Part shown: positions 5,355 to 64,000 of the stretch, piece after piece | Position numbering within the stretch: the stretch's first letter is position 1 | How the letters are laid out: each line of letters starts with the position of its first letter | From: a bacterium | GTDB taxonomy: Bacteria > SAR324 > XYD2-FULL-50-16 | Length of the DNA: 64,000 nt | Direction of reading: 5' to 3' | NCBI GenBank assembly: GCA_032250835.1 | Contig: JAVVEA010000004.1 | Coordinates: forward strand, 1 to 64,000 | Translations under genes and position numbers: made by a program | The notes under the pieces: generated by a model | What the model saw: the letters and a program-made list of their open reading frames with translations, nothing else | What the model was told of the DNA's origin: nothing | The model's database searches: none

Positions 5355-5356
5355 TA

Positions 5357-11397: not shown

Positions 11398-11600
11398 GAA
11401 TGCAGGTGGATTGAGCGGCGGTCTCCGGTGGGCTTATAAGCGCCACCGTCGACGAACTGCTCAAATTCTTCGTCCACGGCTGAATAGCGGCGGATCGTCC
11501 CTCCTGACTTGAGGAATTGTTGCACGGCGCTGTCGATTTGCTGAGAATCGGGGTTGAAGCCGCGGGTGCGGTCACTGCGCCGGGTTGTACGTTGAGCCAT
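11394..11600 (-). CDS. Small protein with SutA-like (FLxxGGxI) motif
   Basis: GGAG RBS before ATG 11600; 68 aa containing AVQQFLKSGGTIRRY. Confidence 0.6.
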   Translation of the reverse strand: MAQRTTRRSDRTRGFNPDSQQIDSAVQQFLKSGGTIRRYSAVDEEFEQFVDGGAYKPTGDRRSIHLHS

Positions 11601-11633
11601 GCTGCACTCCAAATTAATTTTGTGGTTACCGAA

Positions 11634-11723
11634 GATTCATGGGGGGCCTTGGTGGTTCCAAAGCCTTAACCCCCCATGAATCCGTTGCAGGGTACCGAAG
11701 TGGGTTGTGTCACAGGTATCCTG
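11634..11723. other. Two adjacent hairpins upstream of the small gene (putative structured RNA leader)
   Basis: Perfect 13-bp IR GATTCATGGGGGG/CCCCCCATGAATC, followed by GCAGGGTACC/GGTATCCTGC. Confidence 0.45.
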
Positions 11724-12061
11724 CCCCCTCCTGTTGCTTTAGCTGTGCCAAAGGGTTCAGTTTTTTCAGAATGTTTTATTATCTCTTTTATATCAAAAGC
11801 TTGAGCTAGCATCGGGTGAGGGCCTTAGTGCCCTTTTTCAGACGAAATCGACGTGAGGCCCCTTACGGTGCCCCCGGGCTTATTCGGTATAACCTTTCTG
11901 TTAGAGTATCTTACAGCCTCAAACCCCATTCGACGGAATGGGCGAATGTTGTCGAAAAGGGCCAGCAGAACGCCGAAAAGGGGGATGACTTCGGGGGCTT
12001 AAGCGGCTAGTCTGTAAGGCATCGCGAATGATTGGAAACCAGCTAAGGCACGTAACCCTTT

Positions 12062-15010
12062 ATGAATGCACCGAATATCCAGGCAGGCGACCGCATCTGC
12101 GGTTTTAAGGTAGAGCAGGTCACCGACCTCCCCAAGTTGAGCAACCGGATGATCCGGCTCCGCCACGAGGTCACCGGCGCTCAGATGATCCACCTGGAAA
12201 ACCAAGACGACAACAACCTCTTTGCCGTGGGCTTCCCCACCACCCCGATGGACTCGACCGGCGTGGCCCATATCTTAGAGCACACCGCCCTTTGCGGCTC
12301 CAAGCGTTACCCGGTGCGCGATCCCTTCTTCTCGATGATCAAGCGGTCTTTAAAGACCTTCATGAACGCCTTCACAGCGTCGGACTGGACCATGTATCCC
12401 TTCTCGACCCAGAACGCCAAGGACTTTGACAACCTTTTGGGCATCTATCTGGACGCTGCCTTTTTCCCGCTCTTGAGCCGACTGAACTTTTTGCAAGAAG
12501 GCCACCGGCTTGAGTTTGAAAACCCTGAGGACCCCGAGAGTCCTTTGGTTTATAAAGGCGTGGTTTATAACGAGATGCTCGGCGCGATGAGCCAGCAGAG
12601 CCAAATTATGTACCGTAATCTGGGCCGCGCCCTGTTCCCCACGCTGACTTATCAGCACAACAGCGGCGGCGATCCGGAGCGGATTTTAGACCTGACCCAT
12701 GACGATCTGGTGGCCTTCCACCAAAACCACTACCATCCTTCCAACGCCTATTTCTTCACCTACGGAAACCTGCCCTTGGCGGGGCATTTGGAGAAGATCG
12801 AAGCCCAGGTGCTTTCGAAGTTTGATCCCATCACCGTCCACACCGCCGTGGGCCGCGAGGTGCGCTACCGCCAGCCCGAACGTTTTGACTTTACCTATGC
12901 CTTAGATGCCGCCGATGACGACGGCAAGAAGTGTCAGGCCAGCTTGGCTTGGCTGACCTCAGATGTACGCGAATCGGTGGAGGTCTTGACCTTAGACCTA
13001 CTCAATCAGGTCTTACTGGGCCACGCCGGGGCCCCGCTGCGTAAGGCGCTGTTGGAGTCTAAATTGGGCTCGGCACTGTCCGACGGAACGGGCCTTGAGA
13101 GCGAAATCCGTGAATGTTGGTTTGCTGCGGGGTTGCAAGGGATTGCCGCCGACGACTTTGGCAAGGTCGAAGCCCTGGTGCTGCGGACCTTGTCTGAAGT
13201 GACCGCCAAGGGGATTGATCCCGAAGAGGTCGAATCGGCGCTGCACCAGATGGAAATGGACGCCCGCGAGATCACCGGGGGCCATTACCCCTATTCTATA
13301 AACCTGTTGTTCCGCTTCTTTGGCGCTTGGATTCATGGCGGCGACGCCGCCCAGGCGATTGACCTGGACGCCAGCTTAAAGGAACTGAAGCACCGCTTAG
13401 AGCAGCCGGGGTACCTCGAAGGCAAGATCAAGGAATACTTCCTTGAGAACCAACACCGGGTCTTGGTCACCCTGAGTCCCGATGTGACCTTAGAAAAACG
13501 CCGCGCCGAAGAACGCAAAGCCAAGCTGGAACAAATCCGCCAGTCCTTGAGTGCCGAACAGCGCCAGCAGATTTTAACCGAACAAAAGGCACTAGCGGAC
13601 CTACAGGAAGCCGAAGAGGACCTAAGCGTCTTGCCGACCCTAAAGATCGAAGACATCCCCGAGGGGGTAAGGTTCCAAGATCCGGTTTTAGAGGGGCTTG
13701 AAGGTCATGACGTGACCCTGTACCAGTCACCGACCAACGGAATCAGCTACCTGCAATGTTATTTTAAGCTAGAAGGCGTTACCGACGCAGAACGCCAGTA
13801 CCTCCCCCTCTTGGGCAGCCTACTGACCCAGACCGGTAAGGGAGACTTGAATTACGAGCAAATGTCGGCGCTGATCAACCGCTACACCGGCGGCTTCTCG
13901 GCGGGGCCTTCGCTGCGGCGCAAGCTTGAAGGCGAAGGCTTTGAGGAGTTTTTCGCCGTCGGCACCAAGGCGCTGCACCCGAACCTGCCCAAGGCCTTTG
14001 AGTTGTTGCTGAAGATCTTGAGCGAAGGGCACTTTAAGGAGGTCGAGCGCATCGCCACCTTGGTGAACCAGCGCAGCACCAACCTGACCAACTCGGTGAT
14101 CCAGTCGGGCCACCAATACGCCAGCGCCTTGGCTTCGCGCAACTTCAGCGCCGCCACCAAAATCGACAGCCTCTATGACGGCATCTCTCAGGTGCAGTTC
14201 ATGAAAGAGTTGGCCAAGGTGGAACCCCCGGTTTTGGTGGAACGCCTCAACCCCTTCTTGAGCCTGTTGGAGAAGTTATTTACCGCCAATCGCTTGACCG
14301 TCTTCGCCTTGGGTGAGGAAGAATCCTTAGAAACGCTTAAGGCCCAAATCAAGGCCCTTTACGCCGCCTTGCCCGCCGGTAGCGACCTGAGCGGCCCGCC
14401 GCCTGCCGCCCAAAGCAGTGACGCGGACCTACGCGAAGCCTGGGTGACCAGTACGCCGGTCAACTATGTAGCCAAGGCCTTTAAGGTGCCCCGTTACTTG
14501 AGCCAGGAAGCGCCCAAGTTGCTGGTGCTGGCCAACCTGCTGCGCTCCGAATTCCTGCACGGAGAAATCCGCGAAAAGGGCGGAGCCTACGGCGGCATGG
14601 CAGGCTACAATGCCAACGAGGGGATTTTTAACCTACTCAGCTACCGGGACCCCCAACTGAGCCGCACCTTGGGCGTCTACGAAAAGGTGCCCCAGTGGAT
14701 CGCCGCCGGAAAGTTCAAGCAACAGGCCGTTGACGAAGCTATCCTGACCGCCGTCAGTAGCCTAGACACCCCCAAATCGCCGCTAGGAAAAGCTTTGGGC
14801 GAATACGGCAACCTGCGCAAAGGCAAGACCCACGACCAACGCCTAGCCTTCCGCAAAGCCCTTTTGGCGACGACCCGCCAAGAACTAATCGACCTGGGCC
14901 AAAAATGGCTCACCCAAGGCGGCTCCATCGCCACCATCACCAGCAACGACCAACTAGAAAAAGAGGCCCAAGCGCTGTCAGCGATGGCGCTAAAGAAACA
15001 CAATATATAA
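12062..15010 (+). CDS. M16C (presequence protease/insulinase family) zinc metallopeptidase
   Basis: Inverted zinc motif HILEH in STGVAHILEHTALCGS, plus FMNAFT and IREKGGAYGG. Confidence 0.95.
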   Translation: MNAPNIQAGDRICGFKVEQVTDLPKLSNRMIRLRHEVTGAQMIHLENQDDNNLFAVGFPTTPMDSTGVAHILEHTALCGSKRYPVRDPFFSMIKRSLKTFMNAFTASDWTMYPFSTQNAKDFDNLLGIYLDAAFFPLLSRLNFLQEGHRLEFENPEDPESPLVYKGVVYNEMLGAMSQQSQIMYRNLGRALFPTLTYQHNSGGDPERILDLTHDDLVAFHQNHYHPSNAYFFTYGNLPLAGHLEKIEAQVLSKFDPITVHTAVGREVRYRQPERFDFTYALDAADDDGKKCQASLAWLTSDVRESVEVLTLDLLNQVLLGHAGAPLRKALLESKLGSALSDGTGLESEIRECWFAAGLQGIAADDFGKVEALVLRTLSEVTAKGIDPEEVESALHQMEMDAREITGGHYPYSINLLFRFFGAWIHGGDAAQAIDLDASLKELKHRLEQPGYLEGKIKEYFLENQHRVLVTLSPDVTLEKRRAEERKAKLEQIRQSLSAEQRQQILTEQKALADLQEAEEDLSVLPTLKIEDIPEGVRFQDPVLEGLEGHDVTLYQSPTNGISYLQCYFKLEGVTDAERQYLPLLGSLLTQTGKGDLNYEQMSALINRYTGGFSAGPSLRRKLEGEGFEEFFAVGTKALHPNLPKAFELLLKILSEGHFKEVERIATLVNQRSTNLTNSVIQSGHQYASALASRNFSAATKIDSLYDGISQVQFMKELAKVEPPVLVERLNPFLSLLEKLFTANRLTVFALGEEESLETLKAQIKALYAALPAGSDLSGPPPAAQSSDADLREAWVTSTPVNYVAKAFKVPRYLSQEAPKLLVLANLLRSEFLHGEIREKGGAYGGMAGYNANEGIFNLLSYRDPQLSRTLGVYEKVPQWIAAGKFKQQAVDEAILTAVSSLDTPKSPLGKALGEYGNLRKGKTHDQRLAFRKALLATTRQELIDLGQKWLTQGGSIATITSNDQLEKEAQALSAMALKKHNI

Positions 15011-15337: not shown

Positions 15338-16858
15338 ATGAAAACTACTTGGATCGTGGCTCTGTTAGCCCTGGTAATGCTCGCTGGCTGTAAGTCGAGT
15401 GAAGAGGATGTGGTGACTAGCAGCACGGCACCGACCGTCAGCTCCACCTCGCCGGCCAGCGGGGCTGCGAGTATCTCGGTCGCCAGCACCTTGCAAGTGA
15501 CCTTCTCCGAGGCGATGAGTACCGCCTCGATCACCACCAACTCGGCGGCTAGTACCTGTAGCGGCGCTATCCAACTGTCTTCAGATTCCTTTTCGACTTG
15601 CGTGCCCTTAAGCGGCACCGTAGACGCCAGTTCGGACAGCAAAACCTTCACCGCCACCCCCTCGGCGGAGTTGACCGGTGCCACCTCCTACATTTTAAAA
15701 GTCACCACCAGCGCAAAGAGTAACGCGGGGGTTGCCCTGTCGGCAGACTACACCATGGCGAACGCCTTCGTGACCAATGCAGGCCCAGCCCTTTCGTCGA
15801 GCACACCGAGCGACGGGGCCACGGGGGTGAAAGACGCAACGCTGAACATGACCTTTGACAAGGAATTGGATTCGACCACGGTCACCGGAAACACGACCGA
15901 CACCACCTGCTCGGGCAGTTTTCAGGTCTCTACCGATAGCTTTGCAACCTGCATGAAATTTACCCAGGCCCCCAGCCTCTCTACCGACAAAAAGACTGTA
16001 AATCTTTACATAGATGCCAACAGTATCACCGCTACTAGTTTATCCATGAAAGCCACAACGGCTCTAAAGGCTACCAACGGAACGCCCCTGGCTTCGGACC
16101 TAACGGTCAGCTTTACGGTGGACGGGGGCTCGAGCACTACCACCACGACCACGACCACTTATAAAGCCCTGGCTTTTAATGGGATCGACAAATACGCCAA
16201 GAACAACACTGCGGTCGACATGGGGATTTCCAGCAGCTACAGCATGGCGGTTTGGATGAATGTCTCGGCCTATCCTGGTGCCACGTTCATGGGCACCATT
16301 ACAGCCCTATCGGCGGGCTTGGAGGCCAACTCGGCGATCTTACAGGTGGACAGTTCGGGAAAGTTAAATGTGGTCGTCTATGACAATTTTTCGGGCAGCA
16401 CCTACAAGCACTATATTTCTAGTGTTGTGCTAGGTACCGCTCGGCGGCATGTGGGCTTGACCTTCGACGGCACTACACTGCACGTTTACATAGACGGCAC
16501 CGAAGACACCTCGGTCGTAAAAACGCGCGATGATACGCTCACGGCCCATACGGTTGCCAATAAGACCCTCTATTTGGGGGCCGACTGGTATGGGGCGAGC
16601 TTCTTCAGCGGTAAGGTCCATTCAGTGGCTTTGTGGAATCAGGTCCTGTCGGCCAACGAGTTTGTGACGCTTTACGCATCCGGCCAACCGGACACGGACC
16701 TAAACGTCAACAGCGGCTCTTACGTTAACAGCACCAATCTACAGCATTGGTGGCTTTTGGGTTACAACGGCTCCCTCTCCTTAGACAAGGGGGTGGGTAC
16801 TGCGGTCTCCATCGACGGCGGGGCTAATATCACCACCTCCGATATTTACGACTTCTAA
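15338..16858 (+). CDS. Surface lipoprotein with two Ig-like (Big_5-type) domains and a C-terminal LamG/concanavalin-like domain
   Basis: GAGGAGG RBS and lipobox LAGC; two PTVSSTSP...VTFSEAM-type repeats, a poly-Thr linker, and HVGLTFDG...YIDG...GKVHSVALWN. Confidence 0.8.
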   Translation: MKTTWIVALLALVMLAGCKSSEEDVVTSSTAPTVSSTSPASGAASISVASTLQVTFSEAMSTASITTNSAASTCSGAIQLSSDSFSTCVPLSGTVDASSDSKTFTATPSAELTGATSYILKVTTSAKSNAGVALSADYTMANAFVTNAGPALSSSTPSDGATGVKDATLNMTFDKELDSTTVTGNTTDTTCSGSFQVSTDSFATCMKFTQAPSLSTDKKTVNLYIDANSITATSLSMKATTALKATNGTPLASDLTVSFTVDGGSSTTTTTTTTYKALAFNGIDKYAKNNTAVDMGISSSYSMAVWMNVSAYPGATFMGTITALSAGLEANSAILQVDSSGKLNVVVYDNFSGSTYKHYISSVVLGTARRHVGLTFDGTTLHVYIDGTEDTSVVKTRDDTLTAHTVANKTLYLGADWYGASFFSGKVHSVALWNQVLSANEFVTLYASGQPDTDLNVNSGSYVNSTNLQHWWLLGYNGSLSLDKGVGTAVSIDGGANITTSDIYDF

Positions 16859-16876
16859 ACACCCACTGAAAAGTCC

Positions 16877-16913
16877 AAAGGCCGAGACCCTCCGGGGCCT
16901 CGGCCTTTTTTTT
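16877..16913 (+). terminator. Intrinsic terminator
   Basis: AAAGGCCGAG...CTCGGCCTTT stem followed by a T-run immediately after the lipoprotein stop. Confidence 0.85.
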
Positions 16914-17134
16914 GCCCAGGCTATGGGGGCCCTGTTACCGCTCAAAGGTAACGGATCGGCTGCTAAGGGACCTGAAAAAAGCCTGTAGAGGTAAAGTTCC
17001 GCCGTGAACTGGCTTGGGGCCCAAGGGTCTGCTCGCCCTAACCCTGGCGCTCTTTCAACTAGTTGGAGTCGGAGCCTTGCGGGTCCCCCGCAACGGCCCA
17101 TTTCCTAAAAGTTCACCCCCAAAAAACCAGTTAC

Positions 17135-17839
17135 CTAAAAGTTCCAGCCCACGCCCAAACTGAAGGTGGACATAGGGAACATGTTTTCGCGCCAGCTGAC
17201 GTCGTCTTTGAGGTGGGCTAGGTCGGCCTCGCTGACGGTGCTGTCTGCGTTCGGGGTGGTGATGGTGATGGTTTTTTGGCGTTGGTCCACGGCGATTAGG
17301 CTGCCTGCGCTTAAGCTGAATCCACTTTCGCTCACCCAGACATAACCCGCGCCCAGAGCGGCTCCGCTGCCGGCCTCTCGGTCGATTTGAATATCCAAGT
17401 CGGTGGTATAGGCGTTATCGCCCAGGATACGCGCCCGTTTGTCATAGACGTAATGCTCGCTTTGGGCACCTAGACTCAGCCCGCCAGCCGAAAAGTAAAG
17501 CCCAAAGTCCCAGGGGGTCCAGCGCAGCTCCACCGTTTGGGTTGGCTCGCGGGTATAGGTGCTTTGGTCTAAGCCCTCTTGTTGGAACATCATCCGCTCA
17601 GAGCCCATCATCCAGCCCATGGCCGATTCCCCTTCGGCCCGGCCTCGCCCGCTGACGCCGAAATACCATTGGGGGTTAAAGTGGTAGCCCAAGGCCGCGC
17701 CTTGGTCATAAGCGGTGGCGTTGGGGCCCCAGTTGGAGGGCGTTAACCATTGTAGTTGGAGCGGGTTCTGTTCGCGCCCGTCGGCGAAGAGGGCCGGAAC
17801 CCAGGCTAGTATAAGGATCAACAACGTTAGTCTTTTCAT
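17135..17839 (-). CDS. Outer-membrane beta-barrel protein
   Basis: Signal peptide MKRLTLL, amphipathic strands, C-terminal LGVGWNF (BAM signal). Confidence 0.7.
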   Translation of the reverse strand: MKRLTLLILILAWVPALFADGREQNPLQLQWLTPSNWGPNATAYDQGAALGYHFNPQWYFGVSGRGRAEGESAMGWMMGSERMMFQQEGLDQSTYTREPTQTVELRWTPWDFGLYFSAGGLSLGAQSEHYVYDKRARILGDNAYTTDLDIQIDREAGSGAALGAGYVWVSESGFSLSAGSLIAVDQRQKTITITTPNADSTVSEADLAHLKDDVSWRENMFPMSTFSLGVGWNF

Positions 17840-18209
17840 TTTATTTGGTGGAAATCTCAGCATTAAAGCATGGTCGTTGAAAGAACTGGACTTATCGGTT
17901 CCAGCCTAAGCCGCCCTTGAAGCTCTGGTGGCCCCGTGTAGGAGCCAAGGTAGCCAGCTCAAGGGATCACCCTCTTTGAGGTGCCAAGCCAAAGACGACC
18001 CCGCCGCCAAGGACCGCTTAAGCTTCCATAGTTGGGGCGGCTCCTAGTCCAAGGCATCTTCGGGTTAACAAAGGTCCCGAAGGGGTTGTACCCAATATAA
18101 CGCTTATACGCCCTTTTCGCCAAATATCTTACCACGGGACTTTTTTTGGTCCTATGGATATTTGGCTCTAATTGGGTGCTTCCCTATAAGGGATAGGTAT
18201 TCTGGGTAA

Positions 18210-18231
18210 AATGGTTGTGCTATTAACTATT
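18210..18231. promoter_or_regulatory. Putative MarR operator
   Basis: Imperfect palindrome AATGGTTG-TGCTA-TTAACTATT about 50 bp upstream of the marR-type gene. Confidence 0.45.
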
Positions 18232-18281
18232 AACCCATAAACTAATACCAAGGCAATTTTAATCGTTCTGCCAGGAAGGAC

Positions 18282-18749
18282 ATGAAAAACCAGCAAAAAC
18301 ACCTACAACTTCAAGATCGAGTTGGGTTTCTCATCAGCAATACGTCTTGGGTGATTCGTAGCCACATGCTCAAGCATATCCATGCGCAGGGGGTTGATGT
18401 AACACCCGAGCAGTGGATTATTCTTAATTGGTTGTGGAACTATCAATCGGCTTACCAACAAGAATTGGCCGATGCCATCCAAAAAACCAAGGCCAACGTG
18501 ACCCGGCTGATTGATGGCTTGGTTAAACGCGGTTTTGTGGTCAGGGAACTCGAAATCGCGGACCGTAGAAAACACCGGTGTGTTTTGACTCCCGCAGGAA
18601 CTGAAATGATGGGTCGGTTAATGCCTATCGTGTTGGCGGAGTATCAAGAGGTCATCAAAGACCTTTCGGGCGACGAGATCCAAGCCTTAAAGAGCATTTT
18701 GGCTAAGATCACGCATCGGGTCCAACAGCTCTCTGGAGATAAATCTTAA
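18282..18749 (+). CDS. MarR family transcriptional regulator
   Basis: TPEQWIIL, QQELA, NVTRLIDGLVKRGFV and DRR..LT. Confidence 0.92.
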   Translation: MKNQQKHLQLQDRVGFLISNTSWVIRSHMLKHIHAQGVDVTPEQWIILNWLWNYQSAYQQELADAIQKTKANVTRLIDGLVKRGFVVRELEIADRRKHRCVLTPAGTEMMGRLMPIVLAEYQEVIKDLSGDEIQALKSILAKITHRVQQLSGDKS

Positions 18750-56144: not shown

Positions 56145-58130
56145 ATGAGTTTACCCAGCCGCTTGCAAGGAACCGACGGAATCCGGGGGCGCATCCGCCC
56201 TGAAGAAGGTCCCCGTGGACCTTTGGAGACCTACCTGGGGGAAGGTTTTCTGACGCCCCATTTCTTTGAACTGTACGCCCATGCCTTTGCCTTGCTTTTG
56301 ATCGAGCGGGGCTTAGCCAAGCCCGGTGACGCTTTGGCGGTAGGTTGGGACGGGCGAGACGCCGACGGGGTCTTTGACTCGGCTTTTATGGGCGGCCTGC
56401 GTAAAGCCGGTTTAAACGTTTGGGCCTTAGGCATCCTGCCGACCCCGGCGGCGCCGCTTTTTATGTTGGCTCAGGGCGCACGCGGTGCGGCGGTGTTGAC
56501 GGCCAGCCACAACCCGGCGGATCAAAACGGAATCAAGCTGTTTTTACCTAGCCTGGGCCTCAAATTCTTACCGGCCGACGACGAAGCGCTGACCCAAAAG
56601 ATTTACGCCCTGCGCGAGCGCGACCTGAGCCAGTTGTCGATGCGCGGCGACTTGGTGGGGCGGCATGAGGAAGCCTGGAAGTTTTTTGTGGACCAAAGCT
56701 TAAAGCCCGAGAACTCTTGGATCGAAGGCCTGGACTTGAGCCAGACGGTCCTGGTGGTCGACGCCAGCAACGGGGCCACCGCCGCTTTGGTGGAGCCTAT
56801 CTTCGGCAATCTGGGGCTTAAAGACCTGATCTTGACCAATCTTCAAGGGTCCATCAACGCCAATTGCGGTGTGGCGGACATCGAAGGGCAAGAAGAGATC
56901 GGGCGCGACCAATTGGAGCAGCGTTTTAAGGGCTATCCTATGCTGAACGCCTTCTTTGAAGCTGCCCAGCGCCCCGAAATCCGTAGCGGTGCCGCCCGGT
57001 TGGTGGGATTGGTGTTTGATGGCGACGGCGACCGCTGTTACCGCCTAGACTACGACCCGACCAGCGACGCCGCCCTGGTTAGCTCCGGTGACCTGTTAGG
57101 CTTTCATCTGGCCCGGCATCTAGCCAAAAAGTCCGGACCGGGCCGGTACTTTGCCTTTACCGTCGAAAGCGATTTGCTCTTGGGCCAAGCCGCCGAAGCC
57201 TTGGGCTACAAAGCGCTCTTGACCGGAGTGGGCGACAAGTGGCTGCTGCGCCAGGGGGCCGCTTCGATCTTACGTTCTCAATTGGGTAGCGACCAAGCCG
57301 CCCTGGAACTGGGCAAGATGCTGGAAACTTGGCTGCAAGACCCCGCCGCTTCGGCGCTGGTCATGACCCAAGCCGCCGAATTGTATTTTGCTCAGCGCGG
57401 CTGGCACGAAAAGGGCGCTTTGGACTTTGCGTTGGGCCTCGAAGAATCGGGCCATGCCTTAAGTGCTTTTTGGCTGGAAAAAGAGGGCATCTTGTTGCCC
57501 GCCTTTGCGGGTAACGGGATCAAAGCGGGGCTTAACAGCTTGGCGGCCATGTCTGGGATCATCGAGACCCAGGCCCTTTCGGCCCCCTTTGAGGCGGGCT
57601 TGAAGGCGACCCATTATGTCTATTATGTCGATAAGTCCAAGTTAGAGCCCAACCGTAGCTTCCGCTTAGAGTTCACCAAATTTTTGCTCGAAGCCCTACC
57701 TCAGGTGTTAGGCCCAGGCTTTACGGGCCGCATAGAATCCTTTGCCGAAGAGCCCAGTCTGCTTTTCTGCCACCTACTCAAAGACGGGCATGCCTGGGGG
57801 GCCGTATTCCTGCGCAATTCGGGCACCGAAGATAAGTCGGCGTTGTACCTGCGGGGCCCCCATGCGGGCGCTGCCATCCTGGGGCAGTTGGCGGAACTGC
57901 TGCACGTTAAGCTGTTGGCGGAGCTCAAAGACCCCAACAAAGATTTGGCCCAATTAGAACAGGCCCTGTTAAAGGCCATTGCCCAGGGCCAAGACCCCGA
58001 AGCCGCCGCCGAGGCCTTTGCGGGGCTTCCCTTTGGGCGGGTGTTAAAAGAAATGGAGCTAAAGCAAGGCCTGATTCGGCGGACCCCGGCGGGATTGGAG
58101 ATTGATCAAAAAGGGCGAGCCCTGTTATAA
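56145..58130 (+). CDS. Alpha-D-phosphohexomutase (GlmM-like), enlarged
   Basis: GTDGIRG, TASHNP..NGIK, FDGDGDR, VGDK, EESGH and RNSGTE. Confidence 0.85.
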   Translation: MSLPSRLQGTDGIRGRIRPEEGPRGPLETYLGEGFLTPHFFELYAHAFALLLIERGLAKPGDALAVGWDGRDADGVFDSAFMGGLRKAGLNVWALGILPTPAAPLFMLAQGARGAAVLTASHNPADQNGIKLFLPSLGLKFLPADDEALTQKIYALRERDLSQLSMRGDLVGRHEEAWKFFVDQSLKPENSWIEGLDLSQTVLVVDASNGATAALVEPIFGNLGLKDLILTNLQGSINANCGVADIEGQEEIGRDQLEQRFKGYPMLNAFFEAAQRPEIRSGAARLVGLVFDGDGDRCYRLDYDPTSDAALVSSGDLLGFHLARHLAKKSGPGRYFAFTVESDLLLGQAAEALGYKALLTGVGDKWLLRQGAASILRSQLGSDQAALELGKMLETWLQDPAASALVMTQAAELYFAQRGWHEKGALDFALGLEESGHALSAFWLEKEGILLPAFAGNGIKAGLNSLAAMSGIIETQALSAPFEAGLKATHYVYYVDKSKLEPNRSFRLEFTKFLLEALPQVLGPGFTGRIESFAEEPSLLFCHLLKDGHAWGAVFLRNSGTEDKSALYLRGPHAGAAILGQLAELLHVKLLAELKDPNKDLAQLEQALLKAIAQGQDPEAAAEAFAGLPFGRVLKEMELKQGLIRRTPAGLEIDQKGRALL

Positions 58131-58162
58131 CCAAGTCATTGTAACTTCTAGAGGAGACTTTC

Positions 58163-58864
58163 ATGATGCGTCGGTTGCCCCTTTTCTTAGGCTTGTTTCT
58201 TCTTTTGGCTGGCCCTGTCTGGGCGGAAAGCAAAGTGGCCGAAGTGGCCGCAGACCACGAACCGGCCAAGCTGACCGGCAAAAATAAGCCCATCTTGGTG
58301 GGGCCAAAAAAGGTCTTGTTGGTGCCTCAGTCCTTTAAACAGGTCACCAGCGGCAAAGACACCCTGACCATCGAATACGAAAAGCTGCACCCCACGGACA
58401 AATACCCGATCGTCCGCATCCAGGGGATTCAGTTTAACGTCCGCACCCAAGGGGAAACCATCGAATGGACCTGGCAGGGTGCTGGGTACATGATGGTCTG
58501 GCCCAAAAACGAGGCCGAGAAGGTGACGCTGATGTCCAGCGAGCCCTTTGACAAGCAGGCCTTTACGCCTGAGAAAAAAGACGCCAAACATGCTTTGATT
58601 AAAGAAGGCCTCAAGGTCCAAACGAAGCGCCAAGACGGAACGGTGGCTATGTTGGAGATCACCGCCGTTGAGGAACAGGGCGGCAAGATGACCAAGTTTT
58701 CGGCCCGCACCTTTAGCGACGAAAAGCAGGCCGACCAGTTCCAAAACGAAAACAACATCCCCGCCCCGCCGGTCCATAAACAATACGAGAAGGGCGTCAA
58801 CGGTGAGGTCTTATTCATCTTCACCAGCAATGACAAAGGCCAGATCTTTGTCTACTGGCGCTAG
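58163..58864 (+). CDS. Hypothetical secreted protein
   Basis: GAGGAG RBS; signal peptide; beta-rich. Confidence 0.7.
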   Translation: MMRRLPLFLGLFLLLAGPVWAESKVAEVAADHEPAKLTGKNKPILVGPKKVLLVPQSFKQVTSGKDTLTIEYEKLHPTDKYPIVRIQGIQFNVRTQGETIEWTWQGAGYMMVWPKNEAEKVTLMSSEPFDKQAFTPEKKDAKHALIKEGLKVQTKRQDGTVAMLEITAVEEQGGKMTKFSARTFSDEKQADQFQNENNIPAPPVHKQYEKGVNGEVLFIFTSNDKGQIFVYWR

Positions 58865-59036
58865 TTCTTTCGCGGTTGCGGGCGCTCGCCGCAACCGGGA
58901 CCCCGCTCGATTCCCTTCTTGGTTATTCTGCGCCCTGCCTGGCCAAGTCTTGGCCGGTAAAACTCCCCTGCAACAGTCCCCTTGTTGCGCTGCTGCGGTC
59001 ATGGTACAATAGCCAAAGTGCCATAGGGAGGCCCGA

Positions 59037-60833
59037 ATGATTTCCATTTCTAAGGTAATTAAAGAGTTCCGCATCCCCAGCCTGCCTTCAGACCGGGTTC
59101 AGTTAGAGGTCTTGCTGGGTAAGGGGAGGGAATTGGCCTTGGGTGGCCATGATTCAACGGCGTTGTACCACTGGACTAGGGCCGCAGGGATTTCGAGCAG
59201 CGAAACGCTCGCTTTTGTCAAAAAGCTCTTTAGCCAATGGCGGATCGAAGGGCCCGAAGAAGCCCTACTGACCGCTGGCTTGATGCTGCTAAAATTAGAA
59301 AAGGCCGCGCCGCCGTTGACCAACTTCTTAGGCAATCTGGCGCGCCGCCAAGACAACCTGGGGCTGGCCAAAAAGCTTTATGCCGTAGGTGTCAAGGCCG
59401 CGCCGCTGCACAAACTCAGCCTCTTTAATCTAGCGGCAACGACCGCCAAACTGCCGCTCTACGATGCGGCAATCCCCCAACTCATAAAGAAGTGGCTGCC
59501 CACCGAAGAGGTGGTTTTGCCCGCATACCAGAGTGACCGGGAGGTGATACAAAAGATCACTGCAGCGCTGCATGAGGAAAAAAAGCTGGCCAAAGAAAAG
59601 CGCTTGGTCGAGTTGGCGGACCTGCAAGAAGAGGCGGAGCGCAACATGGACGCCCTCAAGATGCACGGCTACACCACCGAGGTCAAAACCCTGAGCCAGT
59701 CAGACTGTATGCCTAGTAGCGACGAGGTTTTGGCGGTGTTAGAGAAAGAGGTAGAACTGGACCAGCAGGACCCCGACCGGGTGGCCCCGTTGTTTGCCCA
59801 AAAGCGGCTCTACGACCTGGGGCTTTACGCCTTGAGCTTAGAACGCGCCGCCTTGGCGCGGACCTGCTTTGATCGGTTGGTTGCACTTGAGACCCCCTTG
59901 CCCCATATCCCCCTGCTCTTAGGCATGACCGACTACTTGGAAAAGGGGGTCGATGCCGGGTTAGAGGCACTCAATGATTGCCTGCACAAAGACCCCAAGG
60001 ACCGCTACGTCACGGCCAACATTGGTTTGATGCACCTCAGGGAGGGGCACCGTTATTCAGGTGCGCTGTACCGCCTGTTGGCGGCGAACCTGCTTGAGTG
60101 CAGCAACGGCCACTTCCATTACCCCGACTTTCTGGCCGAGGCCCAGGCGGCCTACGAAGACCCAGACCGCCAACGCTTGGCCCTAAAGCTCTACAACCAA
60201 ATTGCGTTAGAACGAGAAGACCCCACCGTCTGGGCCCGGATTGCCAAATTAAACTTCGACGCCAACCGCCTCAAAGAAGCGGCCCAAGCCTTAAAGGAGT
60301 GGCTGGTGTTGGAGCCAAACAATGCCTACGCTAAGGAAAAGCTGGTCGAGTTGAGTGAAGCCTTTTTGGCCAAAGGGCAGCAGCTAGAAACCGAAAAAAA
60401 ATACAAGGCGAGCATGAAGGTCTACCTACAAGCCGCCGAAATCGCCAAGACGCCGGAATTGCTCAAGCGGATTGAAGAAGGCTTTTACCGCTTCAAGCAG
60501 CCTTTAAAGGCCAAACAGGCCGAGATGGAACGGCATGTGATGGTGATGATGGAGCAACGCAAACGGGCGGCAAAGCAACAAGAGGAGTTGCTCAAGGTAG
60601 GCATGGCCTACCTACGCAACGGGGTCACCAAAAAAGCGGCGACCACCCTGGAAAAGGCCCTGGAGCTTAAGGCAAACCTGCCGATTTACCAGACCCTATG
60701 CCTGCTGTATAAAGACGAGGGCAACGAAAAGGACCTATATGAGTTGGAATCCCGCTGGGCCGACATGCTGGCCGAAGAAGAAGAAATGGCTAAGCGGGAA
60801 AAGGAATTCCATTGGTATTATGCGGGGCTTTAG
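59037..60833 (+). CDS. TPR-repeat protein
   Basis: GGGAGG RBS; helical repeats with TPR-like spacing and charged coiled segments. Confidence 0.7.
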   Translation: MISISKVIKEFRIPSLPSDRVQLEVLLGKGRELALGGHDSTALYHWTRAAGISSSETLAFVKKLFSQWRIEGPEEALLTAGLMLLKLEKAAPPLTNFLGNLARRQDNLGLAKKLYAVGVKAAPLHKLSLFNLAATTAKLPLYDAAIPQLIKKWLPTEEVVLPAYQSDREVIQKITAALHEEKKLAKEKRLVELADLQEEAERNMDALKMHGYTTEVKTLSQSDCMPSSDEVLAVLEKEVELDQQDPDRVAPLFAQKRLYDLGLYALSLERAALARTCFDRLVALETPLPHIPLLLGMTDYLEKGVDAGLEALNDCLHKDPKDRYVTANIGLMHLREGHRYSGALYRLLAANLLECSNGHFHYPDFLAEAQAAYEDPDRQRLALKLYNQIALEREDPTVWARIAKLNFDANRLKEAAQALKEWLVLEPNNAYAKEKLVELSEAFLAKGQQLETEKKYKASMKVYLQAAEIAKTPELLKRIEEGFYRFKQPLKAKQAEMERHVMVMMEQRKRAAKQQEELLKVGMAYLRNGVTKKAATTLEKALELKANLPIYQTLCLLYKDEGNEKDLYELESRWADMLAEEEEMAKREKEFHWYYAGL

Positions 60834-60851
60834 GCAGGGGACCGTAAGAAC

Positions 60852-60881
60852 GGGCCCTTCGCGGAGGGGCCCCGCCTCTTT
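60852..60881 (+). terminator. Probable terminator
   Basis: GGGCCCTTC-GCG-GAGGGGCCC hairpin after the TPR gene stop; weak T-run. Confidence 0.5.
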
Positions 60882-60920
60882 AGGTTGGCCCCTGTGCGTC
60901 ATCTGTGCTCCTAACCGCTG

Positions 60921-60975
60921 AGGCCGAACGATCCCTTGAAAATCAGGTGGTAAACTAGTTTGCGGTCGGCTTGAT
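60921..60975 (+). repeat. Inter-cassette site R1
   Basis: 35-mer AATCAGGTGGTAAACTAGTTTGCGGTCGGCTTGAT at 60941-60975; outer stem AGGCCGAACG/CGGTCGGCTT; inner CTTGA-AAA-TCAGG. Confidence 0.7.
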
Positions 60976-60980
60976 AAAAT

Positions 60981-61358
60981 CTAAGCGAAAATCCCGCTAT
61001 GCAGGCCGAACTTCACATCAAAGTCGGTGTATTCAACGATGGGGCGGCTTTTGTTGTCATGTTTTTCAAAAGACACGATCCCATAATGAGACAATTTCTT
61101 TAGCGTCCGGCTTAAATTGGATTGAGCCCGCCCGGTTTGCTGGGCCAACTCGACTATGGAATTGGGATGCGTCTCTAGGATCATTTGCAACAGCTTTTGG
61201 TTCTCCTCGCTTAACAGCTGGGAAAGGGCCTTGACGGAGGGGAAAAAAACCTTCGGTTCCCCCTTGGCAGGTTTGTATTCCCCTTTCGCAATCCGAATGC
61301 TGCGCGCCTGATATTCGGCCAACGGCATGATCCCAATGGTAAGGGTTTTCGCTTTCAT
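60981..61358 (-). CDS. HTH antitoxin (TumA/HVO_A0114-like)
   Basis: FPS...L..LLS.EN..LL, P.SI.ELA..TGR..SNLSRTLK.L..YG.V; ATGA-coupled to the upstream toxin. Confidence 0.8.
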   Translation of the reverse strand: MKAKTLTIGIMPLAEYQARSIRIAKGEYKPAKGEPKVFFPSVKALSQLLSEENQKLLQMILETHPNSIVELAQQTGRAQSNLSRTLKKLSHYGIVSFEKHDNKSRPIVEYTDFDVKFGLHSGIFA

Positions 61359-61690
61359 GGCTGTTTCTCCAAAAACTGGTTCACCTCGGCCCAAAAGTCT
61401 TCCAATAGCTGCCCGGCCGTTTTAAATCTGTAGGGGTACACTTTTTCTTGTTTGTGCAGATGATCCCATTCAACCCGGCGGTGTTCTTTAAAGCCATGGG
61501 CGTTGTCAAAGCCGATAACCCGGTGCTTGGTTTCGTCAAATAGGTTCAGGGCATATTTGATTCCATGGGGAACCTCCTTACGCACGGCAACCTTTTGGGC
61601 TTTAAAGCTCACAAAGTGGCTTGGCGATAAGGCAAAGGCCTCCCCGTCGAGGTCCAGCAGGTATTGCAACCCAGTTTGATCATCTTCCAT
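61355..61690 (-). CDS. TumE/DUF6516-like toxin
   Basis: VPHGIKYAL, RVIGFDNAH, WDH.H and YPY.F.....LL.DFW. Confidence 0.8.
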   Translation of the reverse strand: MEDDQTGLQYLLDLDGEAFALSPSHFVSFKAQKVAVRKEVPHGIKYALNLFDETKHRVIGFDNAHGFKEHRRVEWDHLHKQEKVYPYRFKTAGQLLEDFWAEVNQFLEKQP

Positions 61691-61699
61691 AGCGTGATT

Positions 61700-61718
61700 A
61701 TATCAGCAGGTGATATAT
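61700..61718. promoter_or_regulatory. Putative antitoxin operator
   Basis: TATATCA-GCAGG-TGATATA palindrome just upstream of the toxin start. Confidence 0.55.
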
Positions 61719-61753
61719 ATTTGGAAGCGAATTCTTGAAGCCCCTGCGAGAAA

Positions 61754-61788
61754 AATCAGGTGGTAAATTTGTATGCTGTCAGCTGATT
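61754..61788 (+). repeat. Inter-cassette site R2
   Basis: AATCAGGTGGTAAATTTGTATGCTGTCAGCTGATT; contains the antitoxin stop codon. Confidence 0.8.
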
Positions 61789-62057
61789 TCAAGCTGGTTG
61801 GTGGCGTACTTGTGCAGGATCGACTGGATCAACGTCTGGTAGGGAAGCCCCGCCTTGGCGGCTTTGAGTTGGATGGCCTCTAGGTCGGAATCGGGGATGC
61901 GGATGCTCAAAGGATGGGATTTCTTCAACGTCTGGTCGACGATCATCTTACCTTCGAGACGTTTCAGGGCTTCTGGCGAAGACTGGGTTTTCCCCTTCTT
62001 CAGGTCGTCCATCCAAGCGGCTTCCAGTTCATCCAGCGGTTTTGGGCGGTCTTTCAT
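61779..62057 (-). CDS. CopG/BrnA-like ribbon-helix-helix antitoxin
   Basis: SIRIP..DL..I..KA...GLPYQTLI.SILHKY; ATGA-coupled to the toxin. Confidence 0.85.
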   Translation of the reverse strand: MKDRPKPLDELEAAWMDDLKKGKTQSSPEALKRLEGKMIVDQTLKKSHPLSIRIPDSDLEAIQLKAAKAGLPYQTLIQSILHKYATNQLEIS

Positions 62058-62317
62058 AAATACGTCCACTTTAGCTTGCGCTCAGGCCAAGCAGTGATCA
62101 AAAAGATTTCATCCTCCGATTCCCGAAAGGGCACGCCGCAAACCTCTTCCCCTACAGCAACGGTGAATGCTTGCTGGTCCGGGTAGGCCGGGCGTATTTT
62201 AATGCCCAATACAGCCCCGGCTTGAATTAAATCCGCTATCAACTCCAGTGAATGCCCACGATCCGGGTTCTCTTGCAGGATGCTGCTCTTCTCTGGATTC
62301 CAGCGTATCTTTTTCAT
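62054..62317 (-). CDS. BrnT-like toxin
   Basis: WN.EK...L...RG.S.E, YP.Q, VPF and IFLITA.P.RK. Confidence 0.8.
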   Translation of the reverse strand: MKKIRWNPEKSSILQENPDRGHSLELIADLIQAGAVLGIKIRPAYPDQQAFTVAVGEEVCGVPFRESEDEIFLITAWPERKLKWTYL

Positions 62318-62365
62318 GAAGAAATTGTAGAACAACGTAGCTATAAGGACACCTAAAACCGCTAC

Positions 62366-62432
62366 AAATCCGGTGACCCTATGCCTATTCCCTGAAAATC
62401 AGGTAATAAATGGGTATGCTGTCACCGGGTTT
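62366..62432 (+). repeat. Inter-cassette site R3 (full hairpin form)
   Basis: 35-mer AATCAGGTAATAAATGGGTATGCTGTCACCGGGTT at 62397-62431; 24-nt arms 62366-62389 and 62409-62432; inner CCTGA-AAA-TCAGG. Confidence 0.8.
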
Positions 62433-62437
62433 AGTTG

Positions 62438-62767
62438 CTACCCAAGCAGCCGTTTCCCAAGGAGTTCCTCCATGTTTCGCCGACCGTCCAAAACAGCAAC
62501 GATGTAAACCGTCTTCGCTTGGATTTGATACAAGATGCGGTAGGGGCCTTCGTGGATTTCGAGGTGGCCCTGGTGGCCGACTGCTTCAAGTTCGGGCAAC
62601 ACATGCCCCCGTGCAGGGAGTGTAGATAGGCTATTGCAGGTTGCTTGGAGCTTTTGAAGGAGTTGGGTCGCTTTACCTATGGAGTCATTGGCTCCAACCC
62701 AACGAAAGACATCTTTTAAATCTTTAATGGCCGGTTCAGTGAATTCCACCCGGTAGCTAGGATTCAC
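62438..62767 (-). CDS. RelE/ParE family toxin
   Basis: VEFT..A..DL..., L...P.RG...PEL, YRI.Y and VYIVAVLDGRR; GTG start overlapping the antitoxin end. Confidence 0.9.
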   Translation of the reverse strand: MNPSYRVEFTEPAIKDLKDVFRWVGANDSIGKATQLLQKLQATCNSLSTLPARGHVLPELEAVGHQGHLEIHEGPYRILYQIQAKTVYIVAVLDGRRNMEELLGKRLLG

Positions 62768-63038
62768 CGAGCCCGAACTCCTCACGAATTTCAGCAAACA
62801 CCTCATCGGCAGGTCGTGTTCGCCCCTCTGCAATGGCTTTTTGGCTTTGTGCCAGCATCTTCAGCAAGGCCAAAGTTTCTTGGGTCTGCTCATAGCTGTG
62901 GATGTCTTGCAAGACGGCCTTGGCTTCGCCGTTTTGGGTGATCAGCAAGGTGCGGGGCTCCTGGCCCATATGGCGGATCAGTTCCGCCGCGTGGGCCTTG
63001 ACGTAGCTAATGGGCTTGATGTCTTCGCTGGGTTTCAT
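62757..63038 (-). CDS. Phd/YefM family antitoxin
   Basis: IKPISY.K, LITQNG.AKAVLQD..SYE and LALLK.LA; AGGAG RBS. Confidence 0.92.
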   Translation of the reverse strand: MKPSEDIKPISYVKAHAAELIRHMGQEPRTLLITQNGEAKAVLQDIHSYEQTQETLALLKMLAQSQKAIAEGRTRPADEVFAEIREEFGLGES

Positions 63039-63056
63039 ATTCGGCTCCTGATGATG

Positions 63057-63090
63057 ACTGATTTTAGACTAGATTTAGTCCGAAGGTCAA
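63057..63090 (-). promoter_or_regulatory. phd-relE promoter with overlapping operator
   Basis: Minus-strand TTGACC-N18-TAAAAT enclosing palindrome GACTA-AATC-TAGTC. Confidence 0.6.
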
Positions 63091-63154
63091 GACCACATCA
63101 GGCAGAGCAAACGGGATGGGGACGTTAAGGAGAAGGATCATGCTCATATTCCGT

Positions 63155-63215
63155 AATCAGGTGACAGCATACCAATTTACCGTCTGAGTAAAAAGTGAAA
63201 TATCTCCACCTGATT
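63155..63215 (-). repeat. Inter-cassette site R4 (inverted relative to R1-R3)
   Basis: Reverse complement of 63155-63189 is ACTCAGACGGTAAATTGGTATGCTGTCACCTGATT; outer IR AATCAGGTG (63155) and CACCTGATT (63207-63215). Confidence 0.8.
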
Positions 63216-63231
63216 GGCAGGTGCTAAGGGC

Positions 63232-63384
63232 CTAAGGAACCGCCGCCGGAGCGACCCAAATGGCCCAGGCCAGCCCGCCGATCATCACGGCCAGCGCGGT
63301 GAAGGCTAAAAAGGCGGCGATTCGGTTGATCCGGTGGGCCCAGCGGCAGTAGAGCTGGGAAAGCCAGTCTGGGGGCCAGCTCAT
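63232..63384 (-). CDS. Small single-TM protein (50 aa)
   Basis: ATG overlaps the pirin TGA (ATGA); MSWPPDWLSQLYCRWAHRINRIAAFLAFTALAVMIGGLAWAIWVAPAAVP; not in the ORF track. Confidence 0.55.
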   Translation of the reverse strand: MSWPPDWLSQLYCRWAHRINRIAAFLAFTALAVMIGGLAWAIWVAPAAVP

Positions 63385-64000
63385 GGTTCGATCCGGCCCA
63401 TCTTGCCGGACTCGTAGTCCTCGATGGCTTGCATGATTTCGCTCTTGCTGTTCATCACAAAAGGTCCGTAGCGGGCCACCGGCTCGTTCAAGGGCACCGC
63501 GCCGAGCATCAGCAATTCACAGGGTTCCTCGGCGGTCAGCGCCACCTCGTCGCCGGGGCCCATCACCAACCAATCCCCGGCCTCACCGTTCCAAAGTTCC
63601 GCCCCGAAGCGGCCCTGGCCGTGTAATATATAGAGGTATCCCGTCAACTCCGCATCCAGCGGCAAGCTCAGGTCTGCCCCGGCCTCTAACTTGACATGGG
63701 CATAAAAGATCGGGGTGGTGGTTTGTATTGGCGACTGCTGGCCCTCTAAGCTGCCGGCGATCAGCCGGGCCCAAGCATGGGGCCAAGTCAACTCGGGCAG
63801 TTGCTCTTTGGGGAATTCCTGGTAAGAAGGCTCAGACATCTTGGCGCTGGCCGGTAGGTTGACCCAGAGCTGGATGCCCTCTAAAACCCCGCCCTGCCGT
63901 TTAAATTCGGCTTCAGGCAATTCGGAATGCACCGCGCCGCTGCCCGCGTTCATCCACTGCACGTCGCCGGGGCCCAGTTTGCCGCTATGGCCTGCGCTGT
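63381..64000 (-). CDS. Pirin family protein (5' end outside the window)
   Basis: VQWMNAG.G.VHSE, QLWVNLP..K and EPVARYGPFVMN. Confidence 0.93.
   Translation of the reverse strand, partial: SAGHSGKLGPGDVQWMNAGSGAVHSELPEAEFKRQGGVLEGIQLWVNLPASAKMSEPSYQEFPKEQLPELTWPHAWARLIAGSLEGQQSPIQTTTPIFYAHVKLEAGADLSLPLDAELTGYLYILHGQGRFGAELWNGEAGDWLVMGPGDEVALTAEEPCELLMLGAVPLNEPVARYGPFVMNSKSEIMQAIEDYESGKMGRIEP

Follow-up and report, generated by a model that had tools for sequence, protein, structure and literature searches.

Sites between toxin-antitoxin operons of a SAR324 bacterium are probably decayed repeats of a REPIN-RAYT system

Introduction

Systems of repetitive extragenic palindromic (REP) sequences, their doublets (REPINs) and a REP-associated tyrosine transposase (RAYT) are characterized, in sections of a published account (PMC5581495), by a single-copy Y1 HUH transposase, inverted repeats flanking its gene, an excess of repeats in extragenic DNA, doublets that form hairpins, and inheritance within a bacterial family. 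Here we describe four short sites that separate and bound three toxin-antitoxin (TA) operons at positions 60,921 to 63,215 of a 64,000-nt stretch of DNA (the window; contig JAVVEA010000004.1 of assembly GCA_032250835.1, forward strand, positions 1 to 64,000) from a bacterium of the SAR324 lineage. The source genome (G000) is a 3.66-Mb assembly that is 97% complete, and the window corresponds to G000:C38:1-64000. We conclude, with a probability of roughly 80%, that the four sites are decayed REP/REPIN-type repeats of a RAYT system.

TnpA-REP of Escherichia coli serves here as the model for how the RAYT would move its repeat. Short sites that bound small modules are also known from Xer recombination: Xer sites have a central region of 6-8 bp, and the pdif site is 28 bp long, with two 11-bp arms and a 6-bp centre. 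A first-pass annotation of the window had taken the four sites for a distinct gene-capture or shuffling system whose recombinase acts in trans, and had suggested a resemblance to GTATGGTGTCCCC-type repeats found beside Y1 HUH (RAYT/IS200-like) transposases.

We compared 41 genomes, consisting of G000, 18 others from the same family and 22 from outside the family. Counts out of 19 refer to G000 and the 18 other family genomes. Several of the relatives that carry the repeat motif described below are incomplete genomes.

Results

The sites in the window belong to a repeat family that is dispersed through the genome. Four related 35-mers had been annotated, and a consensus search and a repeat search together found all four. 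The 35-mer consensus, allowing up to 3 mismatches, matched 61754-61788 (plus strand, 2 mismatches) and 63155-63189 (minus strand, 3 mismatches), compared to an expectation of 0.00 matches from 100 shuffles. The repeat search found a direct family at 60939-60976 (76%), 61752-61789 (the reference copy) and 62395-62432 (82%), with spacings of 813 and 643 nt, and an inverted copy at 63155-63187 that paired with the direct family at 88%. We refer to the four sites, in this order along the window, as R1 to R4.

A fuzzy search of the whole genome with the 35-mer found two further copies, at C5:45920 and C9:31386. An initial nhmmer profile gave many partial matches that shared just the 3' two-thirds of the 35-mer; the conserved unit is a motif of ~26 nt with the consensus AAAATAGGTATRCTGTCACCTGATTT. 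A second profile, built on this core motif, gave 55 matches in G000 at E<1, merging into 44 loci. Fifty-one of the 55 matches did not fall in a called gene, although the simple codon-usage caller that we used assigned 87% of the genome to coding sequence. The loci were clustered: 25 of 44 had a neighbor within 3 kb, compared to a mean of 3.2 (maximum 12) in 500 random placements. Ten of the 44 loci contained two or more motif matches, and five of these were divergent pairs, that is, inverted doublets.

The doublets fold into hairpins, and the short copies appear to be derived from a doublet. Hairpin folding of doublets was well beyond that of shuffled sequences in G000 (z -6.1, on contig C5) and in the relative G004 (z -9.2), and exact 52-nt doublets, in both orientations, were present in G015 and G004. 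The left arm of the 35-mer, AATCAGGTG, is the remnant of an inverted partner copy. The same truncated-arm layout was found in six short copies (the four in the window, C9:31386 and C14:5299), indicating descent from one shortened (deleted) doublet. The motif, with no more than one mismatch, was present in nine of the 18 other family genomes and in none of the 22 genomes from outside the family, and a reversed-pattern control had no matches in any of the 41 genomes. No Rfam family was found at the gathering score in 17 repeat-bearing loci.

G000 has a single Y1 HUH transposase gene, with copies of the motif in inverted orientation on its two sides. A search of the whole assembly with the Pfam family Y1_Tnp gave exactly one match (C43:2594-2884), in a gene at C43:2516-3175 that encodes a protein of 219 aa with the motif NHIHLL. 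The protein matched PF01797 at 42.9 bits (cut-off 23) and the NCBIfam profile NF047646, 'REP-associated tyrosine transposase', at 63 bits (E 2.6e-17, profile positions 3-146 of 146). In an alignment of 12 homologues, H60 and H62 of the HUH motif and Y119 were invariant. A profile of these homologues matched E. coli TnpA-REP (4ER8) best among structures in the PDB (E 3.2e-7), with the HUH and tyrosine motifs aligned, and matched the TnpA structures of IS200/IS605 elements (ISDra2 and related) more weakly. The profile was required for this comparison; a PDB search with the single RAYT sequence had no match. The inverted motif copies are at C43:2433-2468 (minus strand), 48 nt before the start codon, and at C43:3166-3201 (plus strand), overlapping the stop codon, with their CACCTGATT ends facing outward.

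This arrangement agrees with much of what the first-pass annotation had anticipated about the enzyme. It had proposed scanning the genome with a profile of the sites and listing the flanked genes and any adjacent HUH enzyme; the scan produced the 55 matches and a single Y1 HUH gene flanked by the motif. The gene is on a different contig from the window, and the enzyme would act in trans, as the annotation had proposed.

The RAYT gene is next to genes for a cold-shock protein and a GFA-family protein (C43:2102-2362, 3193-3621). GFA-family genes are also found as cargo in gene arrays of the relative G015.

The sequence of the inverted flanks varies together with the RAYT protein. Homologues of the RAYT (E<=1e-5) were found in 15 of the 41 genomes, G000 included. 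The RAYT genes of G015 and G017 (63% and 55% identity to the G000 protein) have inverted flanks that are nearly identical to the motif. That of G008 (59% identity) has flanks of the ...GTATCCTGTCCCCAGATC type, and the two copies in G012 (54% and 53%) have ...TATGTCCCCCGAA and ...TCGTGTCCCCTGATT. The more distant proteins of G026 (45%) and G009 (34%) have inverted flanks with ...AACCTGTCCCCTTTT and ...AATCTGTCCCCTTTT, respectively.

Most RAYT genes of this type have inverted flanks. An alignment scan of species-representative genomes identified 80 loci (L084-L163) from many phyla, of which 55 had both flanks and 54 passed a length filter. An inverted pair matching at 13 or more of 14 positions between the 220 nt upstream and the 220 nt downstream was found at 44 of these 54 loci, compared to one of 54 with a shuffled downstream flank, and nearly all of the 44 flank pairs had a TGTC(C/A)CC core. 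The suggested association of GTATGGTGTCCCC-type repeats with Y1 HUH enzymes was thus borne out, both in G000 and across the wider set. The G000 enzyme is a member of a divergent and widespread RAYT clade, and REPIN-RAYT systems are an already known kind.

The ~219-aa family itself is common. Proteins with 39-50% identity were found in Planctomycetota, Acidobacteriota, Desulfobacterota, Omnitrophota, Alphaproteobacteria and others, nearly always with inverted flanks that have the core GGGGACA...TGTCCCC.

R1 to R4 have decayed to different extents. R2 (61754-61788, plus strand; nhmmer E 2.6e-5) is the best preserved short REPIN, with an 11-nt remnant of the inverted arm and a full copy of the motif. 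R1 (60941-60975, plus strand) has an intact left arm, AATCAGGTGG, and a degenerate core and right arm, and is 76% identical to the reference copy. R3 (62397-62431, plus strand) forms a decayed doublet (62366-62431; nhmmer E 4.3e-5) with a degenerate inverted copy at 62366-62389; the arms of this inverted pair (I5), 62366-62389 and 62409-62432, are 75% complementary. Relative to R2, there are eight substitutions in R1 and seven in R3. R4 (63155-63189, minus strand; nhmmer E 1.5e-7) is a full copy of the motif in the opposite orientation, and a remnant of its partner arm, CCACCTGATT, is at 63206-63215, so that the whole element covers 63155-63215.

The sites had been annotated as palindromic. 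Folded as single-stranded DNA, this was true of R2 (-5.8 kcal/mol, z -2.9) and weakly so of R4 together with its distal arm (-7.0 kcal/mol, z -1.6), but R1 and R3 folded no better than shuffled sequences. Rfam, searched at E<=1 over window positions 58000-64000, contained no matching family.

R1, R2 and R3 adjoin the 3' ends of TA operons, as the first-pass annotation had described. R1 ends 5 nt from the stop codon of an antitoxin gene of the winged helix-turn-helix (wHTH) type, R2 encloses the final three codons and the stop codon of a CopG-like gene, and R3 ends 6 nt from the stop codon of a ParE gene. R4 is located 117 nt upstream of the start codon of a Phd gene.

A 9-nt direct repeat, AGGCCGAAC, at 60921-60929 and 61003-61011, brackets R1 and the stop and last codons of the wHTH antitoxin gene. 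It could be due to chance or be a trace of an insertion event.

The positions of the sites at operon 3' ends and in upstream regions might instead reflect a role as host regulatory elements, either operators or terminators, common to the TA operons. REPs in other bacteria are reported to stabilise or terminate transcripts, which favors such a role. However, the 55 motif matches had no consistent orientation or distance relative to neighboring genes, ruling out a promoter or operator. We also considered the motif as a promoter directly and rejected this, as no more than a minority of the 55 matches had the start of a gene downstream on the same strand. In addition, the decayed R1 and R3 do not fold, no Rfam family matched, the three TA operons are unrelated to each other, and the motif is associated with the RAYT gene. 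We believe that there is very little chance that the sites are regulatory elements of the TA operons.

The repeats are not restricted to TA operons. The proposal of a distinct gene-capture or shuffling system is not supported by the genome-wide distribution of the sites, which belong to the intergenic family of 55 matches at 44 loci and adjoin housekeeping genes. Sixty-one open reading frames (ORFs) adjoin repeats outside the window. Their Pfam matches include core functions (QueA, GDP-mannose dehydratase, a sigma-54 activator, an oxidoreductase and GST) and TA or defence functions (CopG twice, HigB, HicB, Fic, TIR and PLD). The capture proposal does retain some support from the copy at C9:31386, which is next to a Fic gene, and from a second TA array in G000 that is punctuated by the repeat. 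This array, at C14:5300-9500 (L005), follows a GST gene and contains a BrnA/CopG-type antitoxin gene and a HigB/HigA pair, with four repeat copies between them.

Homologues of the TumE-like toxin of the window are not accompanied by the repeat in relatives. They were present in five of the 18 other family genomes (one of them a partial match), at six loci, and none of these loci had a repeat within 1.5 kb; there was one marginal match (E 0.88). These findings count against a dedicated capture system, as do the lack of an integron integrase in G000 and the assignment of the sites to a REP family, which the first-pass annotation had itself named, together with no mobility of passengers, as grounds for refutation. 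Orthologues of the TPR gene of the window were found in other genera only (G007, 63% identity; G003, 61%), and these loci had no conserved neighbors, no pirin gene and no TA array. A metagenome scan with the TPR protein gave 51 pattern matches, none of which was a relative.

Two other features were observed beside repeat copies in G000. One is a 5.4-kb block (C5:40200-46230; L006:2202-8228) whose five genes belong to no Pfam family; it is bounded by two 84-nt repeat doublets that are 80% alike. A 228-nt direct repeat (97%) is to the left of the first doublet and to the right of the second, where it is an orphan duplicate of the 3' end of a gene, and within the block there is a 300-nt direct repeat (98%). 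The other is a second conserved element, of ~60-200 nt, which has the core GGCTAGGGGCTCTAAGCCGCTCGCAAAAGGGAACCCAAG and 80-97% identity between copies and no Rfam match; it precedes seven repeat copies (C13:47054, C43:53088, C22:329867, C14:7818, C39:76982, C41:112894 and C39:75328).

In the relative G015, the repeat lies at the seams of arrays with integron-type cargo. G015 had 65 motif matches, and in two of its arrays (L060 and L061) most of the small operons had 52-nt doublets between them. The 44 ORFs of these arrays include typical integron cargo: GNAT (three), PIN (three), MazE (two), VapB, glyoxalase (two), GrpB, DJ-1, GFA and HTH_3 (two). L061 contains an attC family of ~115 nt, also found 4.8 kb from an intI pseudogene (G015:C77) and ~90 nt from the G015 TumE homologue, and fragments of group II intron domains D5-D6 (RF00029, 54.6 and 58.4 bits). 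Two of the G015 doublets meet the attC family at one and the same point (...GCCAGGAATTTAAAT|); the other half of attC is missing, and the DNA beyond is unrelated.

Fragments of RF00029 domains V-VI were seen at the 3' ends of cassettes, by attC halves, at L061:6687-6763, L061:9135-9211, L065:11138-11214 and in L072 (three matches), together with one D1-D4 match. Group IIC introns that target attC are expected at such attC-adjacent cassette ends.

Comparison of L061 with four sister genomes (G017, G012, G004 and G018) revealed cassette-sized blocks of homology on different contigs. Six of these blocks (5036-5500, 6962-7583, 7819-8348, 8503-9250, 11571-12825 and 18024-18419) lie between doublets or have a boundary that is a few to ~120 nt from one. 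Such boundaries raise the question of whether the repeats are working recombination seams. In that case REPINs would recombine with one another, either through RAYT activity on single-stranded DNA or through homologous recombination, and TA and other small cassettes would be cut out, inserted and put in a new order, giving an integron-like array run by an HUH enzyme. The recurrence of the layout in the second TA array of G000, the doublets that part most operons in L060 and L061, and the two doublets that share an attC-half junction with unrelated DNA on the other side all point in this direction. However, the homologous cassettes in the four sister genomes are equally dispersed, yet none of nine loci had a match to the repeat below E 0.1. 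Dispersal of cassettes in those genomes therefore needs no REPIN and fits with integron activity. Likewise, none of the six TumE loci has a nearby repeat, two of the L061 blocks (9319-10039 and 16408-17259) are not bounded by doublets, repeats also adjoin core genes, and we found no duplicated cassette bounded by repeats in G000. Based on these results, we think it quite unlikely that the repeats function as recombination seams.

Integron integrases are present in the family, and not in G000 or its nearest genera. Integron integrases above the TIGR02249 cut-off were found in eight of the 19 family genomes (G018, G015, G004, G016, G001, G008, G011 and G012). In G000 nothing exceeded the cut-off (best 67 bits, compared to the required 265), and intI was not found in the two nearest genera (G007 and G003). 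A 91-aa tyrosine-recombinase fragment in G000 (C40:144158-144433) was considered and rejected as IntI; it is the C-terminal part of a generic phage integrase, next to a methyltransferase gene. No repeats were found near intI genes in seven short intI contigs, whose assemblies are broken within the arrays.

One contig of G008 (C21, L081) has the textbook layout of an integron, with intI facing ~8 kb of small co-oriented cassettes.

The sites in the window do not resemble attC, and intact attC stems do not surround the repeats. The first-pass annotation was correct that the site is neither attC nor Xer in form: on reading the sequence there are no R'' or R' boxes at the ends of the window repeats, and the arms are at least 17 nt apart. 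A loose attC screen, of poor specificity (10 candidates compared to 7 per shuffle in L061), gave one candidate in the window, inside the ParE gene, compared to 2.2 per shuffle, and no excess over shuffles in the G000 arrays. A strict version of the screen found zero sites even within a genuine integron array. BLAST of five attC sequences from the genus g5 against G000 gave only chance-level matches (best E 0.03). We also tested whether 70-nt flanks on the two sides of repeats pair with each other. At z<=-2, pairing was found at one of 20 G015 loci, compared to none of 20 at positions shifted by 400 nt, and at three of 46 loci in G000, indicating that the flanks are not complementary. Boxes of attC that we had noted by eye around several G015 doublets were not borne out by this test.

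These results bear on whether the window array is what remains of a cassette array from a chromosomal integron that lost its integrase, and whose attC sites were overwritten or eroded after invasion by REPINs. The integrases in the family would be consistent with such a history, as would the G015 arrays, in which the same repeat occurs with typical integron cargo, a true attC family and group II intron fragments, and the location of the G015 TumE homologue ~90 nt from an attC. In contrast, G000 and its nearest genera have no integron integrase, G000 has no homologue of the attC families of genus g5, the crude attC screen of the window gave fewer candidates than its shuffles, and flanks were rarely complementary in either genome. 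We consider a relic integron unlikely. It is very doubtful that both processes combined, with REPINs of this RAYT clade settling in cassette seams, displacing attC and then acting as seams themselves, such that the window would be a post-integron TA array without an integrase, reshuffled by the RAYT or by REPIN-by-REPIN recombination and not by IntI.

The TA operons between the sites are ordinary modules, each complete in itself and with an upstream region of its own. All six genes are on the minus strand and form three co-oriented operons, as annotated. The first (60981-61690) encodes a TumE-like toxin (61355-61690; PF20126, 38.8 bits) and the wHTH partner of the HVO_A0114/MarR type (60981-61358 or 60981-61394; PF25212, 72.1 bits). 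The third (62438-63038) encodes a Phd/YefM antitoxin (62757-63038; PF02604, 57.7 bits; TIGR01552) and a ParE/RelE toxin (62438 to ~62767; PF05016, 66 bits; TIGR02385). In the second (61779-62335), the antitoxin of the CopG ribbon-helix-helix type (61779-62069) scored 26.3 bits with PF12441, just under the cut-off of 28, and its partner, a protein of 87-93 aa (62054-62317 or 62054-62335) that had been called BrnT-like, had no Pfam family even at E<=5, leaving that name without support.

Discussion

The single-copy RAYT gene, its inverted flanks, the excess of repeats in extragenic DNA and the hairpin-forming doublets together indicate a REPIN-RAYT system. The sites in the window would be selfish repeats of a known kind: short, decayed, non-autonomous derivatives of an inverted doublet of the ~26-nt motif, from a repeat family served by the single RAYT of G000. 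By analogy with E. coli TnpA-REP, this RAYT may act on single-stranded DNA by binding the doublet in its folded form, cleaving it and joining it again, with copies spreading to intergenic DNA. Copies would build up in accessory, TA-rich stretches and land between operons and at the 3' ends of genes; at R2 the repeat appears to provide the last codons and the stop codon of a gene. The repeats mark the seams between TA operons because members of the family collect in accessory arrays and at the 3' ends of genes. They are probably neither parts of cassettes nor a dedicated capture site.

Several observations weigh against this interpretation. The score of the RAYT with NF047646 (63 bits) is less than the equivalog cut-off of 80. 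The consensus lacks a GTAG-type tag, and the single motif copies beside the RAYT gene do not fold beyond shuffled sequences (z +0.38 and -0.24), so the classical definition of a REP applies at the level of the doublet only. The association between motif and RAYT is imperfect: of the nine relatives with the motif, four have an orthologue of at least 47% identity (one with in-frame stop codons and one partial), three have only paralogues of 34-37% identity, and two (G007 and G013) have no RAYT homologue. The clustering at cassette seams is far beyond that expected from a plain model of insertion into any intergenic space, and in G015 cassette-sized blocks of homology to sister genomes end at doublets. 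Finally, transposition, an empty site or a target duplication was not demonstrated.

By these results, what had looked like a new recombination site is probably part of a REPIN-RAYT system, in a lineage that has been little studied. They also show that one widespread family of ~219-aa RAYT-type proteins has inverted flanks of the TGTC(C/A)CC type across many phyla. A side result, which may be of interest to specialists, is the repeat at cassette seams in integron-bearing relatives, twice against half an attC. In a search of full texts, supplements excepted, none of the 12 top-ranked of 727 papers connected REP-associated tyrosine transposases with attC or integrons in this manner. Among the five papers that combine 'repetitive extragenic palindromic', gene cassettes and attC, none concerned REPs inside integrons, judging by titles and the beginnings of abstracts. 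Should REPINs indeed invade attC or take its place, they would make up a third class of element associated with attC, and would provide a route by which arrays decay, or continue to shuffle, after loss of the integrase.

The window is like an integron array, or a cluster of attC sites lacking an integrase (CALIN), in its gene-plus-site layout, its small co-oriented operons and its TA-rich cargo, and the real integrons of relatives carry the same repeat at cassette seams. Unlike integrons and CALINs, G000 has no IntI, the sites lack R'' and R' boxes, and they belong to a dispersed family tied to an HUH enzyme and not to a tyrosine recombinase. There is also a likeness to elements that home to attC (the IS1111-attC group and group IIC-attC introns), as the G015 repeat twice abuts the same attC point in arrays that hold group II intron fragments. 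This likeness concerns the relatives and not the window, and the flank-pairing test was negative for targeting of attC by the repeat. The pdif modules of Acinetobacter plasmids, with their XerC/XerD sites, are similarly small, often encode TA systems and are bounded by short sites. The window sites differ from them, by geometry alone, in having arms of 9-10 bp that are at least 17 nt apart.

IS200/IS605 elements and their palindrome-associated derivatives share the Y1 HUH chemistry, which by analogy would act here on single-stranded hairpins, and the G000 enzyme has weaker matches to TnpA of the ISDra2 type. In contrast to these elements, there is one copy of the gene in G000, its ends are inverted copies of one motif and not distinct left and right hairpins, and short derivatives far outnumber the gene. 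Relative to classical REPIN-RAYT systems, the single unit in G000 has no hairpin and no GTAG-type tag, the enzyme, of 219 aa, is extended at its C-terminus and scores less than the NCBIfam equivalog cut-off, and there are only ~55 copies of the repeat, concentrated in TA-rich and other accessory arrays. Like the REPs and bacterial interspersed mosaic elements (BIMEs) of E. coli with TnpA-REP (PDB 4ER8) and the REPINs of Pseudomonas fluorescens, the repeats of G000 come with a single-copy Y1 HUH gene between inverted flanks, are in excess in extragenic DNA, form inverted doublets that can fold into hairpins, and are inherited at the level of the family.

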